This document shows positions 23,712 to 48,564 of a DNA stretch of 64,000 bases, one piece after another. Position 1 is the first letter of the stretch; each line of letters opens with the position of its first letter. Under the pieces are notes generated by a model, which searched no databases, was not told where the DNA came from, and saw nothing but the letters and a program-made list of their open reading frames with translations. The position numbers and the translations under genes were made by a program. The stretch spans positions 23,760-87,759 of the forward strand of contig DATHOH010000029.1 in assembly GCA_035485155.1 (NCBI GenBank), read 5' to 3'. The stretch is from Solirubrobacteraceae bacterium (GTDB lineage: Bacteria > Actinomycetota > Thermoleophilia > Solirubrobacterales > Solirubrobacteraceae).

Positions 23712-25055
23712 ATGCTTTCCCCGCTGAAAATGTGCGCGCTTGCAGGGAGCTCGTCGCTCGTGCGCGTGATGAGCGGCGTCGCATCGCTGGCCGTGCTCGC
23801 CGTCTCGGTCGCTCTCACGGGCTGCGGCACGACGCACGCTGACACACCGACCGCCGTGCTCGCCGACGCGCAGCCGCGCAGCTCGAGCGAACCCAAGAGC
23901 TGCCCCGCGGCGGTGCTCGCCACTCGCGCCAGCGTTGTCGAACGCGTGTATCACGAGGGCGTCCACAGCGAACGCGTCGACAGCGCCGAGTACCTCATCG
24001 AGCACTCGGCGGGGCTGCGCGCAGCCGTGGAAGGCGCGAACAGGCCCGCCGCGCGCGCCGCCATCCAGGCGCTTCTGGCAACCGGGCACCTGACCGATCT
24101 CGCCATCACGCGCGCCGGTAAGCCGTTCATCGCCGTCGGGACTCCCGCGCTGGCGCCCGTGCAGGGAACGCTCACGGGCGCACGCGGAACCGCCATCGCG
24201 AGCTACGTCACGAGCGTCTGGGCGGACAACGGCTTCCTGTCCGAGTCGCGCGGGATCAGCCAGGGCGTCATCGTGCTGCGAACCGCCAAGGGAACCAGCG
24301 TCGGCGGCTCTCCCTCGCTCGGCTCCCATTCGCTGCCGAATGAAGGCACCCTGATGCTGAAAGGCGTCGCGTACAGCTACACGTCGTTCCCGGCGCAGGC
24401 GTATCCGTCGGGTGCGCTGCGGGTGTATCTGCTGATCCCGACGAGCGCGACCTCCCCGCTCTGCGGACGTACAACGCAGGACACCACCGTCAACACGCTG
24501 CGACGCGTCGCCGAGCTGATCTACTCGGGCGAGACCGCCGGGCGTGCCACCCGCGCGCAGGTGCGCCGGGTGCAGAGCAGCCGGCCACTGCTGGAAGCGG
24601 TCGCCCGCCGCGAACCTGCTGGCACCGAACGCGCAATCCACGCCCTGCTCAACCACCACATCGTGCGGTTGCGGGTCAGCGCCGGCGGGCAGCTCCTGTC
24701 CGACGTCGGCGGCCCCTACGTGCTCGGCCCGGTGAGCGCGCCGCTACGGTTCGGCGGGCACACGATCGGCAGCTTCGTGCTCTCGATCCAGGACGACGAA
24801 GGCTATCTGCGCCTGACCAGACGCCTGGCCGGGCTCGATGTGTTGATGTACATGAACCTCGGCTCCGGCCCGCCGCAGCTCGTCAAGGACAGCCTCGGGC
24901 CGATGCCGGGACCGGCGCTCGCAAGCGTGCCCGCCAGCGGCGCCTACCGCTACCGGGGGCGCAGCTTCCGCGTGTTCACCGTGCACGCCGCGGCCTTCCC
25001 ATCGGGGCCGCTGACGATCCGGGTGCTCGTACCGATTCCCTATCCCGGCGCCTGA
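23712..25055 (+). CDS. Lipoprotein of two repeated Cache-like sensor modules with no output domain
   Basis: Lipobox LTGC; two internal repeats ending AYPSGALRVYLLIP and AFPSGPLTIRVLVP; start 7 nt after TAGGAT. Confidence 0.6.
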   Translation: MLSPLKMCALAGSSSLVRVMSGVASLAVLAVSVALTGCGTTHADTPTAVLADAQPRSSSEPKSCPAAVLATRASVVERVYHEGVHSERVDSAEYLIEHSAGLRAAVEGANRPAARAAIQALLATGHLTDLAITRAGKPFIAVGTPALAPVQGTLTGARGTAIASYVTSVWADNGFLSESRGISQGVIVLRTAKGTSVGGSPSLGSHSLPNEGTLMLKGVAYSYTSFPAQAYPSGALRVYLLIPTSATSPLCGRTTQDTTVNTLRRVAELIYSGETAGRATRAQVRRVQSSRPLLEAVARREPAGTERAIHALLNHHIVRLRVSAGGQLLSDVGGPYVLGPVSAPLRFGGHTIGSFVLSIQDDEGYLRLTRRLAGLDVLMYMNLGSGPPQLVKDSLGPMPGPALASVPASGAYRYRGRSFRVFTVHAAAFPSGPLTIRVLVPIPYPGA

Positions 25056-41782: not shown

Positions 41783-43780
41783 ATGCTTCGCCGCCGCGGG
41801 TCAACGGCCCGCGTGCTCGGCGCGCTCGCCGTGAGCCTCGTGGCGATCGGTGCCAACGCCGGCCAGGCGGCCGCGGCGGGCGCGACCTTCATCCGCGTCA
41901 ACCAGGTCGGCTATCCGCTCGCAGCACCCAAGCGCGCCTACCTGATGTCGCACTCCGCGGAGACCGGTGCGACGTTCACCGTGCGCTCCGCGGAAGGGGG
42001 AGTCGCCCTCACCGGCACCGTCGGTGCGTCGGTGGGCTCGTGGAGCGCACGTTTCCCGCACGTCTACCCGCTCGACTTCGACGCAGTGCAAACGCCGGGT
42101 ACGTACTCGTTGTCAGTCGCCGGTCGGGCGCCGGCGTCCTCGCCGCCGTTTGCGATCACCTCGGCGCAGGCCCTTTACGAAGTGCCGCTCGCGAACGCTC
42201 TGTCGTTCTACGAGAACGAGCGCGACGGCCCGGAATTCATACCCTCGCCGCTGCGGACGGCGCCGGCCCATCTCAACGACGAACACGCGGTCGCCTACCT
42301 GACCCCGAAGGTGAACGCCGAAGGCGAATTCAAGGGCGAACTGACGAGCCTCGGCGAAACGCTCAATGCGTCGGGCGGCTGGTGGGACGCCGGCGACTAC
42401 CTGAAGTTCGTGCAGACGACGAGCTACGCCGCCGCGCTGCAGCTGATCGGCGTGCGCGACTTCCCCTCGCAGATGGGAGTCGGCGCGCCCGACTCGAACT
42501 TCACCGAAGAGGCACGTTTCGGCGTCGAATGGCTGCTGCGGATGTGGAACGACCAGACGCGCACGCTCTACTACCAGGTGGGTATCGGCGCGGGCAACGC
42601 CAACACGGTCAGCGACCACGACATCTGGCGTCTGCCCCAGGAAGACGACACCTACGGCGGGAGCGACCCGCGCTACCGCTTCATCCGCAACCGCCCGGTC
42701 TTCCGCGCCGGTCCTCCGGGGTCGCCGGTGAGCCCAAACCTCGCGGGGCGCGACGCGGCCGCGTTCGCGCTGTGCTTCCAGGTGTTCGCCCAAACCCGCC
42801 CTGCGCTCGCCTCGCGCTGCCTGCTCGCCGGCGAGCACATCTTCGAACTGGCGAACACCCAACCTCGGGGCAACCTGCTGACCGCGATCCCGTTCGGCTT
42901 CTACCCGGAGACCGAATGGCGCGACGATCTCGAGCTCGGCGCGAGCGAGCTCGCGATCGCACTCGCCTCCGGCGCGCAGCTGCCGGGCGGCCTGCCTCAC
43001 ACCCAGTCGCGCTACTACCTCGAACAGGCCGCACAGTGGGCCAGCGCGTACATCTCGCGCAACCACGGCGAAGGCGAAGGGCTGAACCTCTATGACGTCA
43101 GCGGCCTGGCGCACTTCGAGCTGGTGCGAGCACTGCGCCAGGCCGGCGACCCGGCAGGACTGGCGGTCACCGAAGCACAGCTGATCGCAAACCTCGGCGA
43201 GGAGCTCGAAGCGGCGGTCGCACAGTCACAGCGCGACCCCTTCGGCTTCGGATTCCCGTGGGACAGCGCCGACACCGCTTCGCACGGCGACGGGTTGTCG
43301 GTGATGGCCTCCGAGTACGACGATCTCACCGGCCAGGAAACCTACCGTGGGTACTCCCAGCGGTGGCTGGGGAACGTGCTCGGCGCCAACGCTTGGGGCT
43401 CCTCGTTCGTCATCGGCGACGGCAGCACGTTCCCCGACTGCCCGCAGCATCAGGTCGCAAACCTCGGCGGCTCGCTGGACGGATCGTCGCCGGTGCTCGC
43501 GGGCGCGGTCGTCGAGGGTCCGAGCGATGAAACCAGCAAGGGGCGGCTGCCCGGCATGCGCGCGTGCCCTCCGGCTGGCGGCAAGGCGTTCGCCCGCTTT
43601 AACAACGCGGCCGTATATGCGGACAACGTGCAGTCCTTCACCACGACCGAGCCCGCGATCGACCTCACCGCCTCCTCGATGCTGGCGTTCTCGTGGCAGA
43701 TCAGCTCCGCCCGCCCACTAGGCGAAGCGGGACTCGCAAGCACGCCGGCGCCCCCGCTCGGCGGCGCGCCCGTGCCCTAG
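41783..43780 (+). CDS. Secreted glycoside hydrolase family 9 with N-terminal Ig-like domain
   Basis: RVNQVGY, GGWWDAGDYLK, CPQHQ, YADNVQSFTTTEPAID; start among 41762/41771/41783. Confidence 0.9.
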   Translation: MLRRRGSTARVLGALAVSLVAIGANAGQAAAAGATFIRVNQVGYPLAAPKRAYLMSHSAETGATFTVRSAEGGVALTGTVGASVGSWSARFPHVYPLDFDAVQTPGTYSLSVAGRAPASSPPFAITSAQALYEVPLANALSFYENERDGPEFIPSPLRTAPAHLNDEHAVAYLTPKVNAEGEFKGELTSLGETLNASGGWWDAGDYLKFVQTTSYAAALQLIGVRDFPSQMGVGAPDSNFTEEARFGVEWLLRMWNDQTRTLYYQVGIGAGNANTVSDHDIWRLPQEDDTYGGSDPRYRFIRNRPVFRAGPPGSPVSPNLAGRDAAAFALCFQVFAQTRPALASRCLLAGEHIFELANTQPRGNLLTAIPFGFYPETEWRDDLELGASELAIALASGAQLPGGLPHTQSRYYLEQAAQWASAYISRNHGEGEGLNLYDVSGLAHFELVRALRQAGDPAGLAVTEAQLIANLGEELEAAVAQSQRDPFGFGFPWDSADTASHGDGLSVMASEYDDLTGQETYRGYSQRWLGNVLGANAWGSSFVIGDGSTFPDCPQHQVANLGGSLDGSSPVLAGAVVEGPSDETSKGRLPGMRACPPAGGKAFARFNNAAVYADNVQSFTTTEPAIDLTASSMLAFSWQISSARPLGEAGLASTPAPPLGGAPVP

Positions 43781-43798: not shown

Positions 43799-44740
43799 TC
43801 AGCCGCGCGAGAACGGCCGGTGATGGGCAGCGCCGAGACGATCGAGCACTGCCGTCAGGACCGCCGTCACTTCCGCTGCGCTCACTTCATCAGCCGTCAC
43901 GTCCTCGGCCGCCATCAGCTCGGCCGCGATGTCGCTACTCGGCTCGCCATCCGGCGGTCGCAGCGCCTGAGGCTCGCGCTCCTCGCCGGCCGCGGGCGCG
44001 CTCTGCGTCGCCGCCGGCGCGGCGCCGGCAGCCGCCTGAGCTGCGAACGGGTGGGTCGCGGCGAACGTCTCGGGGGCCAGGACCTGCCGGACCGCCGCGA
44101 ACGCGTCGGGCCGCTCAGGGGACGGCTCCACCGCAAGCGTCTGCGTCTGCGTCGAACCGGACTCCGCGATAGCAGGCGCCGGCGCATCGAGCTCTGGCGG
44201 CCCCGTGTCCTGCGCCGCTTCCTCGGGCGCGAACCGAGTCCTGCTGCGGCGACGGAACAGCCGCGCGAAGATACCGCGACGTGGCTCCGGCTCGCGCGGC
44301 TGCTGCAGGCTCACCGGTGCGATGTCCGGCGCTGCAGCGGCAACTTCAACGTCGGCGGCCGCCTCAGGCTCCGTGGCCGACTTCGGCGCCGTGGCTGGCT
44401 CCGGGTTCGCGTCGGGCTCCGGGTCCGCGGTCGTATCCGGCTGGGCGGCCGCGTCGCTTGCGTCGGGCTCGTCGCGAGTCGCACCGGCAGCCTCGGGCTC
44501 GGCGGCCCGCTCGCGCGTGGCGCTGAGCGTCACCCTTGTTCCCCACCCGGATGGCTTGATCGATACGACGCCGGTAGCGTGCTCCGCTGCCCACTCGACG
44601 ACGCGTTCGGGCTCCGTGCGCACGATGCGGATCTCACCGAGCTCACCGAGATGACGGGCGAGCGCGGCTGGATCGCTCAGCTCCGCCCACAGCTCGGGTG
44701 GCGACTTGACCAGAGTTCGCTGCACCTCCGAAGAGATCAT
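43799..44740 (-). CDS. Hypothetical protein: SRPBCC/START-like N-terminus, acidic Pro/Ala linker, C-terminal HHRPFSRG
   Basis: RTLVKSPPELWAELSD...VEW...GTRVTL. Confidence 0.65.
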   Translation of the reverse strand: MISSEVQRTLVKSPPELWAELSDPAALARHLGELGEIRIVRTEPERVVEWAAEHATGVVSIKPSGWGTRVTLSATRERAAEPEAAGATRDEPDASDAAAQPDTTADPEPDANPEPATAPKSATEPEAAADVEVAAAAPDIAPVSLQQPREPEPRRGIFARLFRRRSRTRFAPEEAAQDTGPPELDAPAPAIAESGSTQTQTLAVEPSPERPDAFAAVRQVLAPETFAATHPFAAQAAAGAAPAATQSAPAAGEEREPQALRPPDGEPSSDIAAELMAAEDVTADEVSAAEVTAVLTAVLDRLGAAHHRPFSRG

Positions 44741-44796: not shown

Positions 44797-45297
44797 CTAG
44801 CCATCGCACACACTTGGGGAGCTGATCGCCGCGGGTAGCCGGCGCGCCTCGACCGGTTCGTCGTCGAACGGCAGCAGGTCGGCGATGCCCGCCTGCTCAA
44901 ACGCCCGCTGCACGAACCGCGGCCCGGGCAAGAGGGAAAAGGCGTAACCCTGCCGCTGGCACAGACCGCACCGGAACGAAATCACCGCGACCCCAACCGA
45001 GTCGATGTGCGTGAGCTGTCGCAGATCGAGTGTGATCGCAGTGACCCCTTTTGCGCAGAGATCCTCGATCTCGACTTCGAGCGCGTGAGCCGAGCGTCGC
45101 GTCAGCTCGCCCGTCAGCACCAGGGTGTGCGCCCAGACACCGGCTGCCTTGGGCGCTGGGCGTGGCTTGGCGGCCCCAGGATGTGTTCGCGTGTTCGTGT
45201 TGAGCGCGGCGCTGCTGCGACTGGCGAGGTTCCGGGTTGCGTCGACCCCGTCTCTTCTACCAATGCTCACCACCGACGTAGACAGTTGACCTTCCAT
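44797..45297 (-). CDS. STAS-domain anti-sigma-factor antagonist
   Basis: LVLTGEL, TLDLRQLTHIDSVG with phosphorylatable Ser; SD AAGGAG 9 nt before ATG 45297. Confidence 0.85.
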   Translation of the reverse strand: MEGQLSTSVVSIGRRDGVDATRNLASRSSAALNTNTRTHPGAAKPRPAPKAAGVWAHTLVLTGELTRRSAHALEVEIEDLCAKGVTAITLDLRQLTHIDSVGVAVISFRCGLCQRQGYAFSLLPGPRFVQRAFEQAGIADLLPFDDEPVEARRLPAAISSPSVCDG

Positions 45298-45304
45298 GAG
45301 ATAC

Positions 45305-45389
45305 AGCTCCTTCCGAGGAAGCTTCGGATTGATTCCCACCGCGCTGGATCAAGAGATCCAACGCCGAACCGATACGACCGGAAGGAGCT
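45305..45389 (-). promoter_or_regulatory. Anti-SD helix sequestering the STAS ribosome-binding site
   Basis: 11-bp perfect inverted repeat (45379-45389 / 45305-45315) enclosing a 10-bp hairpin at 45341-45364. Confidence 0.7.
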
Positions 45390-46506
45390 AGCCCGGGCGC
45401 TCTGGAATCAGAACGAAGAACGCAGTACGCCACGGCTGGCACGAGAGCCGCAGACGGCGCAGAGCGCGTGGAGCCGCGAGCAACAACAGGCCCGCGAGCG
45501 TGAAGAAGCCTGCCGGCGAGACTCCGGAGCCGCCGCCCGCCGATCCGCCCACCGCGCCGCTCGGCGCAGGAGCGGGCGCCGGCACGACCGGGTGGCTGCC
45601 ACCTACCGAGTCGCCGTAGCCTCCGTCGGGCGGACCCGTCCTCGAGCCGGTCGGGGCACGAAAACCCACTGCCTGCACCGAGAGTGAGACCTGAGCACCC
45701 AACCAGCTCGCCCCGCAGTCGTCGTTGGCGGTCCCCGCCATGCCAGAGAGCTGGCAGCTCAGCTCGGCCGCGCGTTGCGCGGCGCTCAGGCCTGCGACCG
45801 AGACGCTACCTGCGATCGCGCCGGCGCCGGGACCGCTCGGCGGCCCGGAGGAGCGTCCCGCGGATCCCACCGCGAGGCGGCCGAGCAGGACGCTCGACGC
45901 TTCCGCCGTGGCGCCGTCGGGGAGCGCTGCATTCTGTGGGGTCTCGGGCGGTGTGGAAATCAGCGCCGCTGCGATCTGCCCGGAGCTCGACGGCGCAGTC
46001 GACGCCGGGCCTTCCCCGACCGTTGCCGTAGTTGTCTGGTCGCCGTTCGGGGTCCCTTCGACCGGTTTCGAGGTGGCTTCCGCCGGCACGAGTTCCTTCA
46101 CACCCGTCGGAGGGGGATCGACTTCGGGCGCCGGTGGCGCTTCTGGCGTCAGCACAACGGGTGGCGGCGGAACTTCGACGGGCGGAATCACAACGACGGG
46201 CGGGACTTCGACGGGCGGGACCACGACGACGGGCGGAACTTCGACGGGCGGAACTTCGACGGGCGGGACTTCGACGGGCGGGGGCGTCGCTTCGGCGGTC
46301 GGAGGTTCGGGCGTCGATGACGGCGTCGTCGTCGATTCCGGCGCCGTTTCAGGCGTGGAGCCGGACGCGGCCGGGATCACGGGTTCGGCGGCGCTCGCGC
46401 TGGCGCCGGCGGCGAGCGCGAGCAGCAACGCCGCGACGAAGGTCGCCGCACAGAGGAGTCCTTTGGCGAGGGTCCTGGTCGAAAGGTTCTGGGCCGTCCC
46501 GAGCAC
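45388..46506 (-). CDS. Secreted Pro-rich protein with C-terminal TM helix and ERPG end
   Basis: Signal peptide; VEVPP repeats; AGFFTLAGLLLLAAP-RALRRLR...IPERPG-stop. Confidence 0.75.
   Translation of the reverse strand: MLGTAQNLSTRTLAKGLLCAATFVAALLLALAAGASASAAEPVIPAASGSTPETAPESTTTPSSTPEPPTAEATPPPVEVPPVEVPPVEVPPVVVVPPVEVPPVVVIPPVEVPPPPVVLTPEAPPAPEVDPPPTGVKELVPAEATSKPVEGTPNGDQTTTATVGEGPASTAPSSSGQIAAALISTPPETPQNAALPDGATAEASSVLLGRLAVGSAGRSSGPPSGPGAGAIAGSVSVAGLSAAQRAAELSCQLSGMAGTANDDCGASWLGAQVSLSVQAVGFRAPTGSRTGPPDGGYGDSVGGSHPVVPAPAPAPSGAVGGSAGGGSGVSPAGFFTLAGLLLLAAPRALRRLRLSCQPWRTAFFVLIPERPG
46158..46284 (-). repeat. 15/18-nt coding tandem repeats (VEVPP/VVVPP)
   Basis: Repeated ACTTCGACGGGCGG(A/G) units on + strand. 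Confidence 0.85.
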
Positions 46507-46550: not shown

Positions 46551-47414
46551 CTAGTGCGACTGCGGCAGCTTCACCGAGCGCGGCGCGCCGGCAGGCGCCG
46601 ACGGTGGCGGCACGACCGGTCCGATGTCGCCGTCTGGTGCGCCATCCAAGTCGACGATCACGGGCGCGTGGTCGCTCGGCCTGCTCCCCTTGCGGGCCGC
46701 CCGGTCGACCCAAGCCGCGCGGACCCTGTCAGCGACCGCGTCGCTCGCCAGCACCAGGTCGATCCGCATCCCGAGGTCCTGGTGGAACATCCCGGCGCGG
46801 TAGTCCCAGTAGGTGAAGATGCGCTCGTTCGGCCAGCGCTCGCGCACGACGTCGCGCAATCCGAGGCGCTCGAGCTCCGCCAGCGCGGCACGCTCAGCGG
46901 GCGTCACGTGCGTGTGACCCGCGTAGGCAGCTGGGTCGAACACGTCGATGTCGGCCGGCGCGACGTTCATGTCGCCGCAAACGATCGTCTCCCGTGGAGC
47001 GGTGGCGAGCATCGTTGCCAACGCCGACAGCCACGCGAGCTTGTAGTCGTAGTGCTCGGAGCCGGGCACGCGACCGTTGGGGACGTAGACGCAGTTCACG
47101 CGAATCCCGCCGCAGGTCGCGGACAGCGCACGCGCCTCCGCCGGCCACGCTGCCGGCTCGAGCCCGACCCCCGTGGCGACATCATCCAACCCCACGCGAG
47201 ACACGATCGCGACCCCGTTCCACTGGAGTTCGCCGTGCCGGGCGAAGGCGTAGCCGCGGCTCGTGAGCTCCTTCCCGAGCAGCTCGTCGAACGCCTCATC
47301 GGTGAGCTTGGTCTCCTGCAGGCAGACGACGTCCGGCTGGCGCTCCTCGAGCCATGGCAGCAGTCGCGGCACGCGCTGCTTGATGGAGTTCACGTTCCAG
47401 GTTGCGATCCGCAC
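46551..47414 (-). CDS. xth: Exodeoxyribonuclease III
   Basis: ATWNVNS, CLQETK, GDMNVAP, GMRIDLVL, SDHAP. Confidence 0.95.
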   Translation of the reverse strand: MRIATWNVNSIKQRVPRLLPWLEERQPDVVCLQETKLTDEAFDELLGKELTSRGYAFARHGELQWNGVAIVSRVGLDDVATGVGLEPAAWPAEARALSATCGGIRVNCVYVPNGRVPGSEHYDYKLAWLSALATMLATAPRETIVCGDMNVAPADIDVFDPAAYAGHTHVTPAERAALAELERLGLRDVVRERWPNERIFTYWDYRAGMFHQDLGMRIDLVLASDAVADRVRAAWVDRAARKGSRPSDHAPVIVDLDGAPDGDIGPVVPPPSAPAGAPRSVKLPQSH

Positions 47415-47433
47415 CGCGCCTACGCTAGCGGTG

Positions 47434-48564
47434 CTAAGGGATCACGCGGCGGCCCCAGGCGAACGAGCTCCCGAGCCAGCTCCCCGTGAGCGGCAGTACG
47501 TATACACCCTGGCCGGAGGATTGGATCACCCAGTTGTCCCCGAGATAGATCCCCTCGTGGATGATGTTGCGCTCGGTGGCCTTGCTGGTGAAATGAGCGG
47601 ATCCGAAGAACAGCAGATCACCGGGCTCGAGCTGGCCGACGCGCAGCCGCTGGGACAGCGGGATTTCGCCGGCCTGTTCGGCGGCTGTGCGGCCGCGAAT
47701 CACCTGACCCCACGGCAGCCGGGAGACCTTGAACACGCGCCACGCGAAGCCCGAGCAGTCAAAGCCTCCGTGTTCGAGCCCGTCGGCGGTGTTGTCGGTC
47801 GTGCCGCCCCAGACGTACGGGTAGCCGATGCGCGAGACGGCGATCTGCAGCGCCTGGCGTTGGGCGGCGCTCATCTGCGGAAGCTCGAACGCGGACAGCG
47901 ATTCACGCGCGGCGGAGATCGCCCAGGTGCTCGTGTTCATCACGGTTGCCAGCGACCACGCGGCCTCGGCACGGGTGAGCGGATCGCTCGGAAACAGGTC
48001 GAGTCGTTGCGCACCGACGGGGTGCTCGTAGCGCAGCTCCAAGAAGCGCGCCACCACTTCGGAGCCGAAGTAGGCCGGCGGCTGCAGGCCGGCGGCGACG
48101 GTAGTCGCCTGTACATGCGCCGCAACGGCGCCCAGCCCGAGCTCTTCAATGAGCATGCGGTCGAAGCCGGCAACGGTGACGAGACTCTGCGTGGTGTGGG
48201 CGACGGCCACCGCGGGCACGACAGCCGCCGTGGGTTCTTCTCCGGTGCTCGGCGGGGCGGCGACTGCCTGCTGATTGACCTCGCGCTGGAGCCACGTCGC
48301 GAGGGCTGCCATCGCCGCGTTGGCCTGGGGCGCTGAAAGCCGGCCGCCGCCGTCGAAGGACCCGGCACCCGCTTCCATCAGCCCCGCCGCGAGCACCTGG
48401 CGCTGCTGGGCGCTGTCCCAGCTGCCGCTCGCGGGCGCGGCGCTCGCGGCGGCGGCGCCCGCCCGCGGCGGCACCGTCCCCGAGGCCGCGCACACCAACA
48501 AGAGCGCGAGCAGGCTGCGGCGCAGCGAGCGGGCACGAGCCCGCGGGAGCAGAGGGCGCGTCAC
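47434..48564 (-). CDS. NlpC/P60 (C40) peptidase with SLH-like N-terminal region
   Basis: GYPYVWGG, FDCSGF, PGDLLFF, HEGIYLG; PSDPLTRAEAA resembles an SLH motif. Confidence 0.85.
   Translation of the reverse strand: MTRPLLPRARARSLRRSLLALLLVCAASGTVPPRAGAAAASAAPASGSWDSAQQRQVLAAGLMEAGAGSFDGGGRLSAPQANAAMAALATWLQREVNQQAVAAPPSTGEEPTAAVVPAVAVAHTTQSLVTVAGFDRMLIEELGLGAVAAHVQATTVAAGLQPPAYFGSEVVARFLELRYEHPVGAQRLDLFPSDPLTRAEAAWSLATVMNTSTWAISAARESLSAFELPQMSAAQRQALQIAVSRIGYPYVWGGTTDNTADGLEHGGFDCSGFAWRVFKVSRLPWGQVIRGRTAAEQAGEIPLSQRLRVGQLEPGDLLFFGSAHFTSKATERNIIHEGIYLGDNWVIQSSGQGVYVLPLTGSWLGSSFAWGRRVIP

Follow-up and report, generated by a model that had tools for sequence, protein, structure and literature searches.

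In a 64,000-nucleotide stretch of DNA from an uncultured soil bacterium of the order Solirubrobacterales (family Solirubrobacteraceae; genome G+C 69%), which comprises positions 23,760 to 87,759 of the forward strand of contig DATHOH010000029.1 (assembly GCA_035485155.1) and is referred to below as the window, a gene for a membrane protein ending in Glu-Arg-Pro-Gly (ERPG) is followed, on the minus strand, by a gene for a STAS-domain protein. The mRNA across this junction is predicted to form a helix that begins in the stop codon of the first gene and pairs with the second gene's Shine-Dalgarno (SD) sequence. Comparison of homologous junctions indicates that this anti-SD helix is conserved and under selection, with compensatory changes in its arms, and that the peptide end, the stop codon and the spacer make up a unit reused before unrelated genes. 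The finding is real, conserved and undescribed; it is of a known kind, namely structures that mask a ribosome-binding site (RBS) and are opened by the upstream ribosome, and its novel part is the rule that the protein ends in ERP(G/D) and its gene in UAG or UAA. It is moderately probable that the junction brings about structure-mediated translational coupling, whether plain or tuned, in which the ribosome completing the upstream gene operates the gate.

The junction in the window

The 372-residue upstream protein is laid out as an N-terminal signal-like hydrophobic segment followed by ASA-AEP (read by eye from the translation), an outer Pro-rich, low-complexity part, a juxtamembrane region conserved over approximately residues 239-330, a C-terminal transmembrane (TM) helix and a 26-residue tail; the conserved part as a whole runs from about residue 239 to the end, and the open reading frame (ORF) closes with ...FFVLIPERPG-TAG. 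Neither the protein nor its 63-residue end matched any Pfam or NCBIfam model, even at E <= 10. The downstream product is assigned to the STAS family by PF01740 (E = 6e-11, 42.5 bits, cut-off 22.6) and PF13466 (E = 3e-10, 40.5 bits, cut-off 29.2), while TIGR00377 scored 45 bits, under its cut-off of 53.45. It possesses a 58-residue N-terminal extension and a conserved N-terminus, M(K/E)RHLT, and its SD, AAGGAG, lies 9 nucleotides (nt) ahead of the ATG.

Two long-range helices connect the end of the upstream ORF with the spacer (Table 1). The core of the first, helix B, is a perfect 11-bp pairing of AGCUCCUUCCG (45389-45379) with CGGAAGGAGCU (45315-45305), which G·U closing pairs extend to 13 bp (45390-45378 with 45316-45304; duplex energy -23.2 kcal/mol). 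Helix B encloses an inner hairpin with a single T:G position, which can pair, as G·U, on the minus strand only. The original prediction, made from the letters of the window alone, had proposed this stop-to-SD helix, the hairpin and its strand-specific pair, and a 26-residue tail ending IPERPG after a TM helix, and all of these were found, the RNA elements at exactly the positions it gave. It had not noticed the second helix, helix A, formed by CUUCGUUCUGAUUCC (45418-45404) and GGAAUCAAUCCGAAG (45336-45322) with 12 of 15 positions paired. The segment at 45400-45285 (116 nt) has a minimum free energy of -48.2 kcal/mol (z = -2.6), a value equalled by one of 200 shuffled sequences, and Rfam 15 gave no covariance-model match at E <= 1 between 44000 and 47000.

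Table 1. Coordinates of the two genes and of the predicted junction features in the window.
Feature	Position	Strand	Basis or remark
ERPG-tail membrane protein gene	46506..45391	-	372-aa ORF
Cytoplasmic tail codons, 26 residues, RALRRLRLSCQPWRTAFFVLIPERPG	45391..45468	-	last 4 residues, ERP(G/D), near-invariant in both genera
Helix A 5' arm, CUUCGUUCUGAUUCC, within last 10 ORF codons	45404..45418	-	pairing and 61-copy alignment
Stop codon UAG, first nucleotides of helix B	45388..45390	-	stop counts in 91 copies
Helix B 5' arm, stop codon and anti-SD, UAGCUCCUUCCGG	45378..45390	-	fold, duplex energy, alignment pairing
Inner hairpin, 10 bp, UCUU loop	45341..45364	-	no U tract, not terminator-like
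Helix A 3' arm, GGAAUCAAUCCGAAG, conserved intergenic box	45322..45336	-	pairing and alignment
Helix B 3' arm, includes SD AAGGAG (45312-45307), UCGGAAGGAGCUG	45304..45316	-	fold; covarying copies L107/L110, L037, L016, L018, L092/L109
Downstream STAS-domain gene (anti-sigma-factor antagonist type)	44800..45297	-	Pfam; start ATG 45297

Conservation of the peptide end and the stop codon

A profile built from the last 59 residues of the upstream protein recovered the ERPG-tail domain in 139 of 201 genomes of the window organism's own genus (g1), frequently as two or three paralogues, as well as in a second genus (g10), which belongs to the same order but a different family and in which a genome may carry as many as five copies (G338). 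The same search came up empty in 400 further genomes from across the phylum. Among 1.84 billion library representatives, 455 clusters carried the domain, and the match reached the protein's last residue in all 150 of the representative matches listed. The shared C-terminal domain runs from a TM helix through RRLRL and PW to ...ERP(G/D), while the proteins of relatives are 261-1168 residues long and their outer parts consist of variable Pro/Ala/Glu-rich repeats. No further copy of the RNA boxes occurs in the window organism's own genome; two ERPG-TGA nucleotide matches there were rejected as copies, being short non-coding frames.

For statistics on the junction itself, 91 distinct copies, labelled with L-numbers, were extracted from the two genera. 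Their last five residues are PERPG (54 copies), PERPD (16), IERPG (13) or LERPG (4), and the exceptions are all conservative (PDRPG, ADRPG, PEKPD and VERPG). The Arg and Pro codons vary synonymously (CGA/CGC/CGG and CCG/CCC/CCT), and the sole change from Arg to Lys is made via AAG, which shows protein-level selection on ERP; selection at the ORF end thus acts on the protein and not on the RNA alone. The 26-residue tail is free of insertions and deletions, its conserved residues span about 23 positions, and the TM helix stands at a constant distance of about 26 residues from the protein end.

The stop codon is also restricted: it is UAG in 87 copies, UAA in four and UGA in none. At the same loci, the adjacent downstream gene ends in TGA 53 times, TAG 13 times and TAA four times (TGA 75%), and genome-wide the long ORFs end in TGA (60%), TAG (36%) or TAA (4%). 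A reassigned UAG was considered and rejected, with 36% of long ORFs ending in this codon and genes for release factor 1 (RF1) and one other release factor both present in the genome. A fusion of the ORFs by read-through or frameshifting was likewise rejected: the spacers have lengths not divisible by three, and 12 codons past the stop there is an in-frame TGA.

Conservation and covariation of the RNA

In genus g1, most copies follow the stop with CUCC(U/C)(U/C)CC(C)GG; over both genera, TAGC comes after the last sense codon in 80 of the 91 copies. The complement of this anti-SD, together with the SD, is located 60-130 nt downstream, and there is always a same-strand gene behind it. The predicted pairing of ORF end and SD is kept in about 90 copies of the two genera, and divergent copies of helix B carry compensatory changes: UAACCGCUCC is matched by GGAGCGG in the UAA copies L107 and L110; AGCCCCU is matched by AGGGGCU in L037, with a G·U intermediate in L033 and L039; CUCCUCCCGG is matched by CCGAGAGGAG in L016; the outer UCCGG/CCGGA segment is exchanged for CGAGC/GCUCG in L018 and L094; and in L092 and L109 the anti-SD is shifted 7 nt downstream, pairing CAGUUCCUU with GAAGGAGCUG. 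Helix A likewise has compensatory copies, L010 with UGAUCCC/GGGAUCA and L099 with CUUGAUUCCC/GGGAAUUAAG. Such a collection of relatives for anti-SD covariation had been suggested in the original prediction, and its outcome bears out the pairing, with compensatory changes in several divergent copies and formal covariation that is weak.

In an alignment of 61 sequences, the paired fraction was 91% and 84% for the two sub-helices of helix A (A1 and A2) and about 90% for the helix B core, as against 10-64% when the partner was slid by 1-3 columns in the same alignment. Many helix positions are G·U, which is workable on the mRNA-sense strand only and shows that this is the strand that folds. Cognate arms also pair better than exchanged ones in permutations that ignore phylogeny, at -16.5 versus -15.6 kcal/mol for helix B (1 of 2000 permutations equal) and -17.5 versus -16.1 kcal/mol for helix A (0 of 2000). 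The hairpin stem covaries between species as well (GGAUC/GAUCC, GGGCC/GGCCC, GGACG/CGUCC), again with strand-specific G·U pairs. Moreover, the ORF end conserves rare codons, ATT and CCA, each accounting for 3-5% of its codon family, and helix A explains much of this usage.

A second RNA architecture in genus g10

The ORF end of g10 copies reads GUC AUC GAG CGG CCU GGC UAG, with nucleotides unlike those of g1, and is predicted to fold differently. Here, the closing helix pairs the codons for I-E-R, AUCGAGCGG, with CCGCUCGAU, a partner that abuts or overlaps the SD, and it closes a nested three-way junction whose first hairpin holds the Pro-Gly codons and the stop. Covariation is again seen: copies with GAA have GUUCGAG (L076), and UAA copies alter the partner to fit. 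In both architectures the stop is situated inside a helix and the 5' arms are within about 30 nt of it, so that a ribosome decoding the last codons is predicted to reach them in either case. With a different fold in g10, conservation is thus stronger for the peptide end and the type of stop than for the RNA solution that accompanies them.

Genes downstream of the module

The downstream genes of relatives were read from the sequence by eye. The main g1 orthologues, including that of the window, have a STAS protein with an N-terminal extension downstream, while paralogous cassettes precede STAS proteins lacking the extension, histidine kinases of the NarL type or secreted proteins with Ser/Asn/Gln-rich repeats. 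In g10, what follows is either a secreted repeat protein or a membrane protein in which a peptidoglycan-binding domain is fused to a serine recombinase. The presence of the module ahead of such unrelated genes shows that peptide end, stop and RNA behave as one unit, and downstream genes this varied exclude the tail as a docking site for any single partner.

Several of these genes are of interest in their own right. The ORFs downstream in L060 and L099 encode a NarL/DesK-type sensor histidine kinase (...LGFDLHDGPIQDV... plus an ATPase domain), so that the module precedes two kinds of signalling protein. The secreted Ser/Asn/Gln/Gly-rich repeat proteins are found in L018 (the ORF after the stop at 2215), L093, L094, L100, L107, L110, L076, L084 and L088; their recurring unit, ...VN(A/V)P(I/V)(S/R)(I/V)LS(Q/D)G(S/D)NNG..., resembles, by eye, the repeats of chaplin-type surface amyloids. 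The g10 fusion protein (L056:1745-3131 and L057:1744-3169, by eye) is an odd combination. It starts with a signal/TM segment at the N-terminus, followed by a GPIDGLFGPLT...VDGIVGRQT repeat of peptidoglycan-binding-like character and another hydrophobic stretch, and it closes with a serine-recombinase/resolvase-like domain that includes a helix-turn-helix. Finally, unrelated downstream genes start alike, with AUG AAA CGU CAU (M-K-R-H; 45286-45297 in the window), codons that are rare at 69% G+C. The first codons of the next gene thus seem to belong to the module as well, be it as a landing site that is A/U-rich and unstructured or as a piece of a duplicated unit.

A proposed gate opened by the terminating ribosome

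We infer the following sequence of events. In untranslated mRNA, helix B would hold the SD region, with helix A as a second tether, and the downstream start would be masked. With the last sense codon in the P site, a ribosome would cover roughly -15 to +15 nt, which takes in the whole of arm B and, of arm A, the 3' half, and a 30S subunit would find the SD open only during completion of the upstream protein. Translation of the downstream gene, STAS in this case, would then be in proportion to completed upstream protein. As the exposure window would be short, slow release would be of profit, and the ERP(G/D) end and the restriction to UAG/UAA may serve to lengthen or tune the dwell of the terminating ribosome. 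Plain coupling needs neither a particular peptide nor a particular stop, yet both are strongly selected, and tuned, slow termination is therefore a plausible addition, the termination step itself being what selection would have shaped.

RNA that spans the junction does exist. A 223-nt contig from a soil metatranscriptome (depth ~3.7) covers 45180-45402 and contains the last four codons, the stop, the entire spacer and 117 nt of the STAS gene, and further metatranscriptome contigs fall within each of the two genes; RNA carrying arm B and the SD on one molecule is thus a matter of observation. In folds restricted to pseudoknot-free structures, which leave the crossing of helices A and B outside the computation, the cost of opening the RBS in the window falls from 20.1 to 9.5 kcal/mol once the RNA 5' of a stop-bound ribosome is removed.

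Several results weigh against this account or limit it. Across g1, the mean opening cost falls from 12.0 to 9.6 kcal/mol only, and a shuffled 5' part gives 11.1, such that the modelled gate is strong in the window copy and modest across the family. In equilibrium folding with a ribosome footprint, alternative local pairings arise and leave SD accessibility nearly unchanged. Helices A and B cross (A5'-B5'-A3'-B3'); in the window A3' and B3' are just 5 nt apart, and the full helices may not form simultaneously there. The covariation term of RNAalifold, which recovers the helix B core and the hairpin, is only -0.45, the main orthologue set showing hardly any variation in either arm, and the permutation tests on cognate arms take no account of phylogeny. 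Three copies (L007, L053 and L065) are without the stop-adjacent anti-SD. Lastly, the sole contig across the junction is of low depth, locates no 5' ends and is compatible with an internal promoter for another sigma factor.

The three copies just named form a subclade (TAGGCxCC...) in which a local CUCC-GGAA-GGAG tetraloop hairpin lies on the SD instead, with helix A kept.

Comparison with known systems

Coupling through structure and without arrest is exemplified by the long-distance interaction between the coat and replicase genes of phage MS2 and by rpmI-rplT of E. coli. Those systems share with the present one a downstream SD paired with upstream coding sequence and unfolded by upstream translation (here a prediction), and the window indeed has its SD paired to the upstream cistron with both on one RNA contig. 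They lack a conserved peptide end and any stop-codon restriction, while in the ERPG module the sequence that pairs with the SD does not reach beyond the region of the last ~10 codons and the stop, and it travels with a protein domain.

In the CutF-cutO system of Rhodobacter capsulatus, an exported upstream protein with an N-terminal signal precedes an RBS-shielding mRNA structure that is opened as CutF is finished (PMC9973294). The ERPG module is similar in having a possible N-terminal signal, a conserved C-terminal end, a predicted RBS-shielding structure and relatives placed before varied genes. It is dissimilar in that CutF is small and belongs to the DUF2946 proteins, with a Cu-binding motif, a Pro-rich end and a single stem-loop, whereas the proteins here are TM-anchored, 300-1100 residues long and unrelated in sequence, end in ERPG and UAG, and are followed by two long-range helices or a three-way junction.

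Monitors of protein export and insertion, such as SecM-secA, MifM-yidC2, VemP-secDF2, ApcA/ApdA/ApdP and the RQH family, have an N-terminal targeting segment, a conserved C-terminal peptide and an SD-sequestering structure at the ORF end (PMC7897499, PMC10987492). In the window, the hydrophobic N-terminal segment is a possible counterpart of the first, the peptide end is conserved, and the SD-sequestering structure is predicted to overlap the would-be stall site, where a ribosome at the ORF end would open it. Unlike these systems, the module has a 372-residue ORF (261-1168 residues in relatives) rather than a small upstream ORF, its conserved stop type points to termination rather than elongation, and its downstream genes encode regulators or secreted proteins and no protein-localization machinery. 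The RQH arrest core, (R/Q/H)-(A/G/D)-(P/G/S)-(P/G), stalls with its third residue in the P site (PMC10987492); in the present E-R-P-(G/D)-stop, R is next to P. Except for an internal EutC match, ERPG is not in the candidate tables of that study, in keeping with the original remark that it is not a familiar arrest motif.

Alternative explanations

Nascent-peptide arrest proper at ERPG-UAG, like that of SecM, MifM, VemP and CutF and sensitive to force or to a ligand, is unlikely. On this account, which builds on the original one, a stall would be relieved by the pulling force of insertion or export or modulated by sensing in the outer domain, the length of the stall would set downstream translation, and information on the state of the envelope would thereby reach STAS or kinase regulators. 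The ERP(G/D) end and UAG/UAA stop outlast the RNA architecture across two genera, the indel-free tail, with conserved residues over about 23 of its 26 positions, is roughly as long as the exit tunnel, and the fixed TM helix and the N-terminal signal-like segment (by eye) would suit such a device. In TnaC, the spacing from W12 to P24 is 12 residues, equal to that from W to the R-P pair here, although this Trp, 13 residues from the end, is missing in many paralogues. PepNL uses UGA and RF2 (PMC11890864). So does TnaC, whereas UGA is excluded in the ERPG module.

Arrest peptides that depend on the stop codon are known, with NSP-stop, NAP-stop and DGMK-stop (PMC10987492) and PepNL (PMC11890864) among them; as in the present case, invariant residues stand right before the stop and selection acts on the stop itself, but those peptides are short leaders with demonstrated stalling. 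CutF, in turn, is exported and acts as a sensor; it has a stalling-like motif at its C-terminus, and a stem-loop shields the RBS (PMC9973294). Against arrest, ERPG falls outside the known arrest core and the published candidate lists (PMC10987492), the upstream proteins are large, diverse envelope proteins and not dedicated small leaders, the downstream genes are not Sec or YidC components, the last residue alternates between G and D, and UAA, which RF2 reads too, is tolerated in four copies. Ordinary coupling, in which the helix would be melted by whichever ribosome terminates, accounts for the RNA without arrest. What stands of the original arrest-peptide proposal is that peptide end and stop are strongly selected with the RNA as one unit, as would be expected of an arrest or pause device. 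Its analogy to the export coupling of SecM and MifM is not supported, given the large membrane protein upstream and the lack of export machinery downstream, and its tie of export to an anti-anti-sigma factor was too specific, given that paralogues would gate histidine kinases and secreted repeat proteins. Its structural reading is supported; a SecM-like, STAS-specific physiology is not.

A narrower version is that ...(F/A)(V/A)x(I/L)(P/I/L)ERP(G/D)-UAG represents a new class of termination-stage arrest or pause peptide, located at the C-terminus of full-length TM-anchored envelope proteins, depending on an RF1-read stop and opening a pseudoknot-like or three-way-junction SD gate. We offer this tentatively, as unlikely.

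Another conceivable explanation, which we regard as quite improbable, is that the tail is a motif of protein function, serving the docking, sorting or anchoring of surface proteins, while the RNA is passive, affecting mRNA stability, setting a fixed low translation of the next gene or being a remnant of cassette duplication. The domain does resemble a sorting or anchor signal, with a Gly-rich segment, TM helix and basic cluster, and it occurs on several paralogues per genome with differing outer domains (up to five in G338). The small mean of the computed gate, the nearly equal performance of shuffled 5' parts and the alternative local pairings that cover the SD even after the 5' arms are removed would also suit a passive RNA. 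Such a reading leaves unexplained the absence of UGA stops, the stop inside a helix in both architectures, the covariation of the arms and the same junction before unrelated genes. Some downstream proteins, being secreted, could not dock to a cytoplasmic tail. Moreover, no known C-terminal sorting model fits: curated models for LPXTG, PEP-CTERM, GlyGly-CTERM and similar signals gave no match (NCBIfam/Pfam, E <= 10), and the 18 conserved residues after the basic cluster are unlike LPXTG or PEP-CTERM-type signals.

Finally, an element acting on DNA or transcription, either an internal promoter for an alternative sigma factor (e.g. a SigB/F-like GTTC-N16-GGGCTA over the stop) or a terminator/antiterminator, is very improbable. 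STAS genes are often controlled by their own sigma factor, the GTTC...GGGCTA spacing fits by eye, and the only junction RNA contig starts at 45402, near the site; but this SigB/F-like promoter was rejected, as the putative -10 varies (GGGCTA, GGACTA, CGGCTA, TGGTTA) and is without the consensus T, the -35 varies at its third base, and the contig runs through the site, its inclusion of 45402-45381, upstream of the predicted start, demonstrating read-through RNA. The G·U-dependent, strand-specific pairing and the arm covariation indicate RNA rather than DNA, and in g10 the nucleotides differ while the pairing is kept. A promoter of the STAS gene's own downstream of 45379, which the original prediction had named as a possible objection, was sought: the spacer contains no sigma-70-type promoter and no U-tract intrinsic terminator, which favours coupling, but the low-depth contig remains compatible with a promoter for another sigma factor.

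Genomic neighbourhood

The next ORF, a 336-residue open frame with no Pfam match, has a candidate GTG start (44809) with which the stop codon of the STAS gene overlaps (TAG, 44799-44797); an ATG near 44740 is another possible start. Neighbours at 46554-48564 and 41843-43777 include exonuclease III (Exo_endo_phos), an NlpC/P60 peptidase and a convergent GH9 cellulase-type gene, and no sigma factor, anti-sigma kinase or PP2C phosphatase is encoded within ~8 kb of the STAS gene. G+C at third codon positions is 0.78 in the ERPG gene and 0.77 in the STAS gene (44797-46506 of the window), lower than in the neighbouring xthA, NlpC/P60 and GH9 genes (0.86-0.90).

Implications

We know of no RNA or peptide regulators described for this lineage, which is abundant in soil and uncultured. 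If the gate works as proposed, the ERPG module would be a portable junction that combines the tail of a protein with a stop codon and a fold in the RNA, through which the translation of a signalling or wall-protein gene is made conditional on completing a membrane protein. The exclusion of UGA is a clean and as yet unexplained signal, accompanied by the ERP(G/D) end across two RNA architectures, and it raises the question of whether termination, including the choice of release factor, may be programmed by the nascent peptide in full-length proteins. Were a new class of arrest peptide to be borne out, membrane insertion or the state of the outer domain would be coupled to the production of STAS partner-switching proteins, two-component regulators and secreted wall proteins, and a positive result would carry the biology of arrest peptides past small leaders and Sec/YidC targets.

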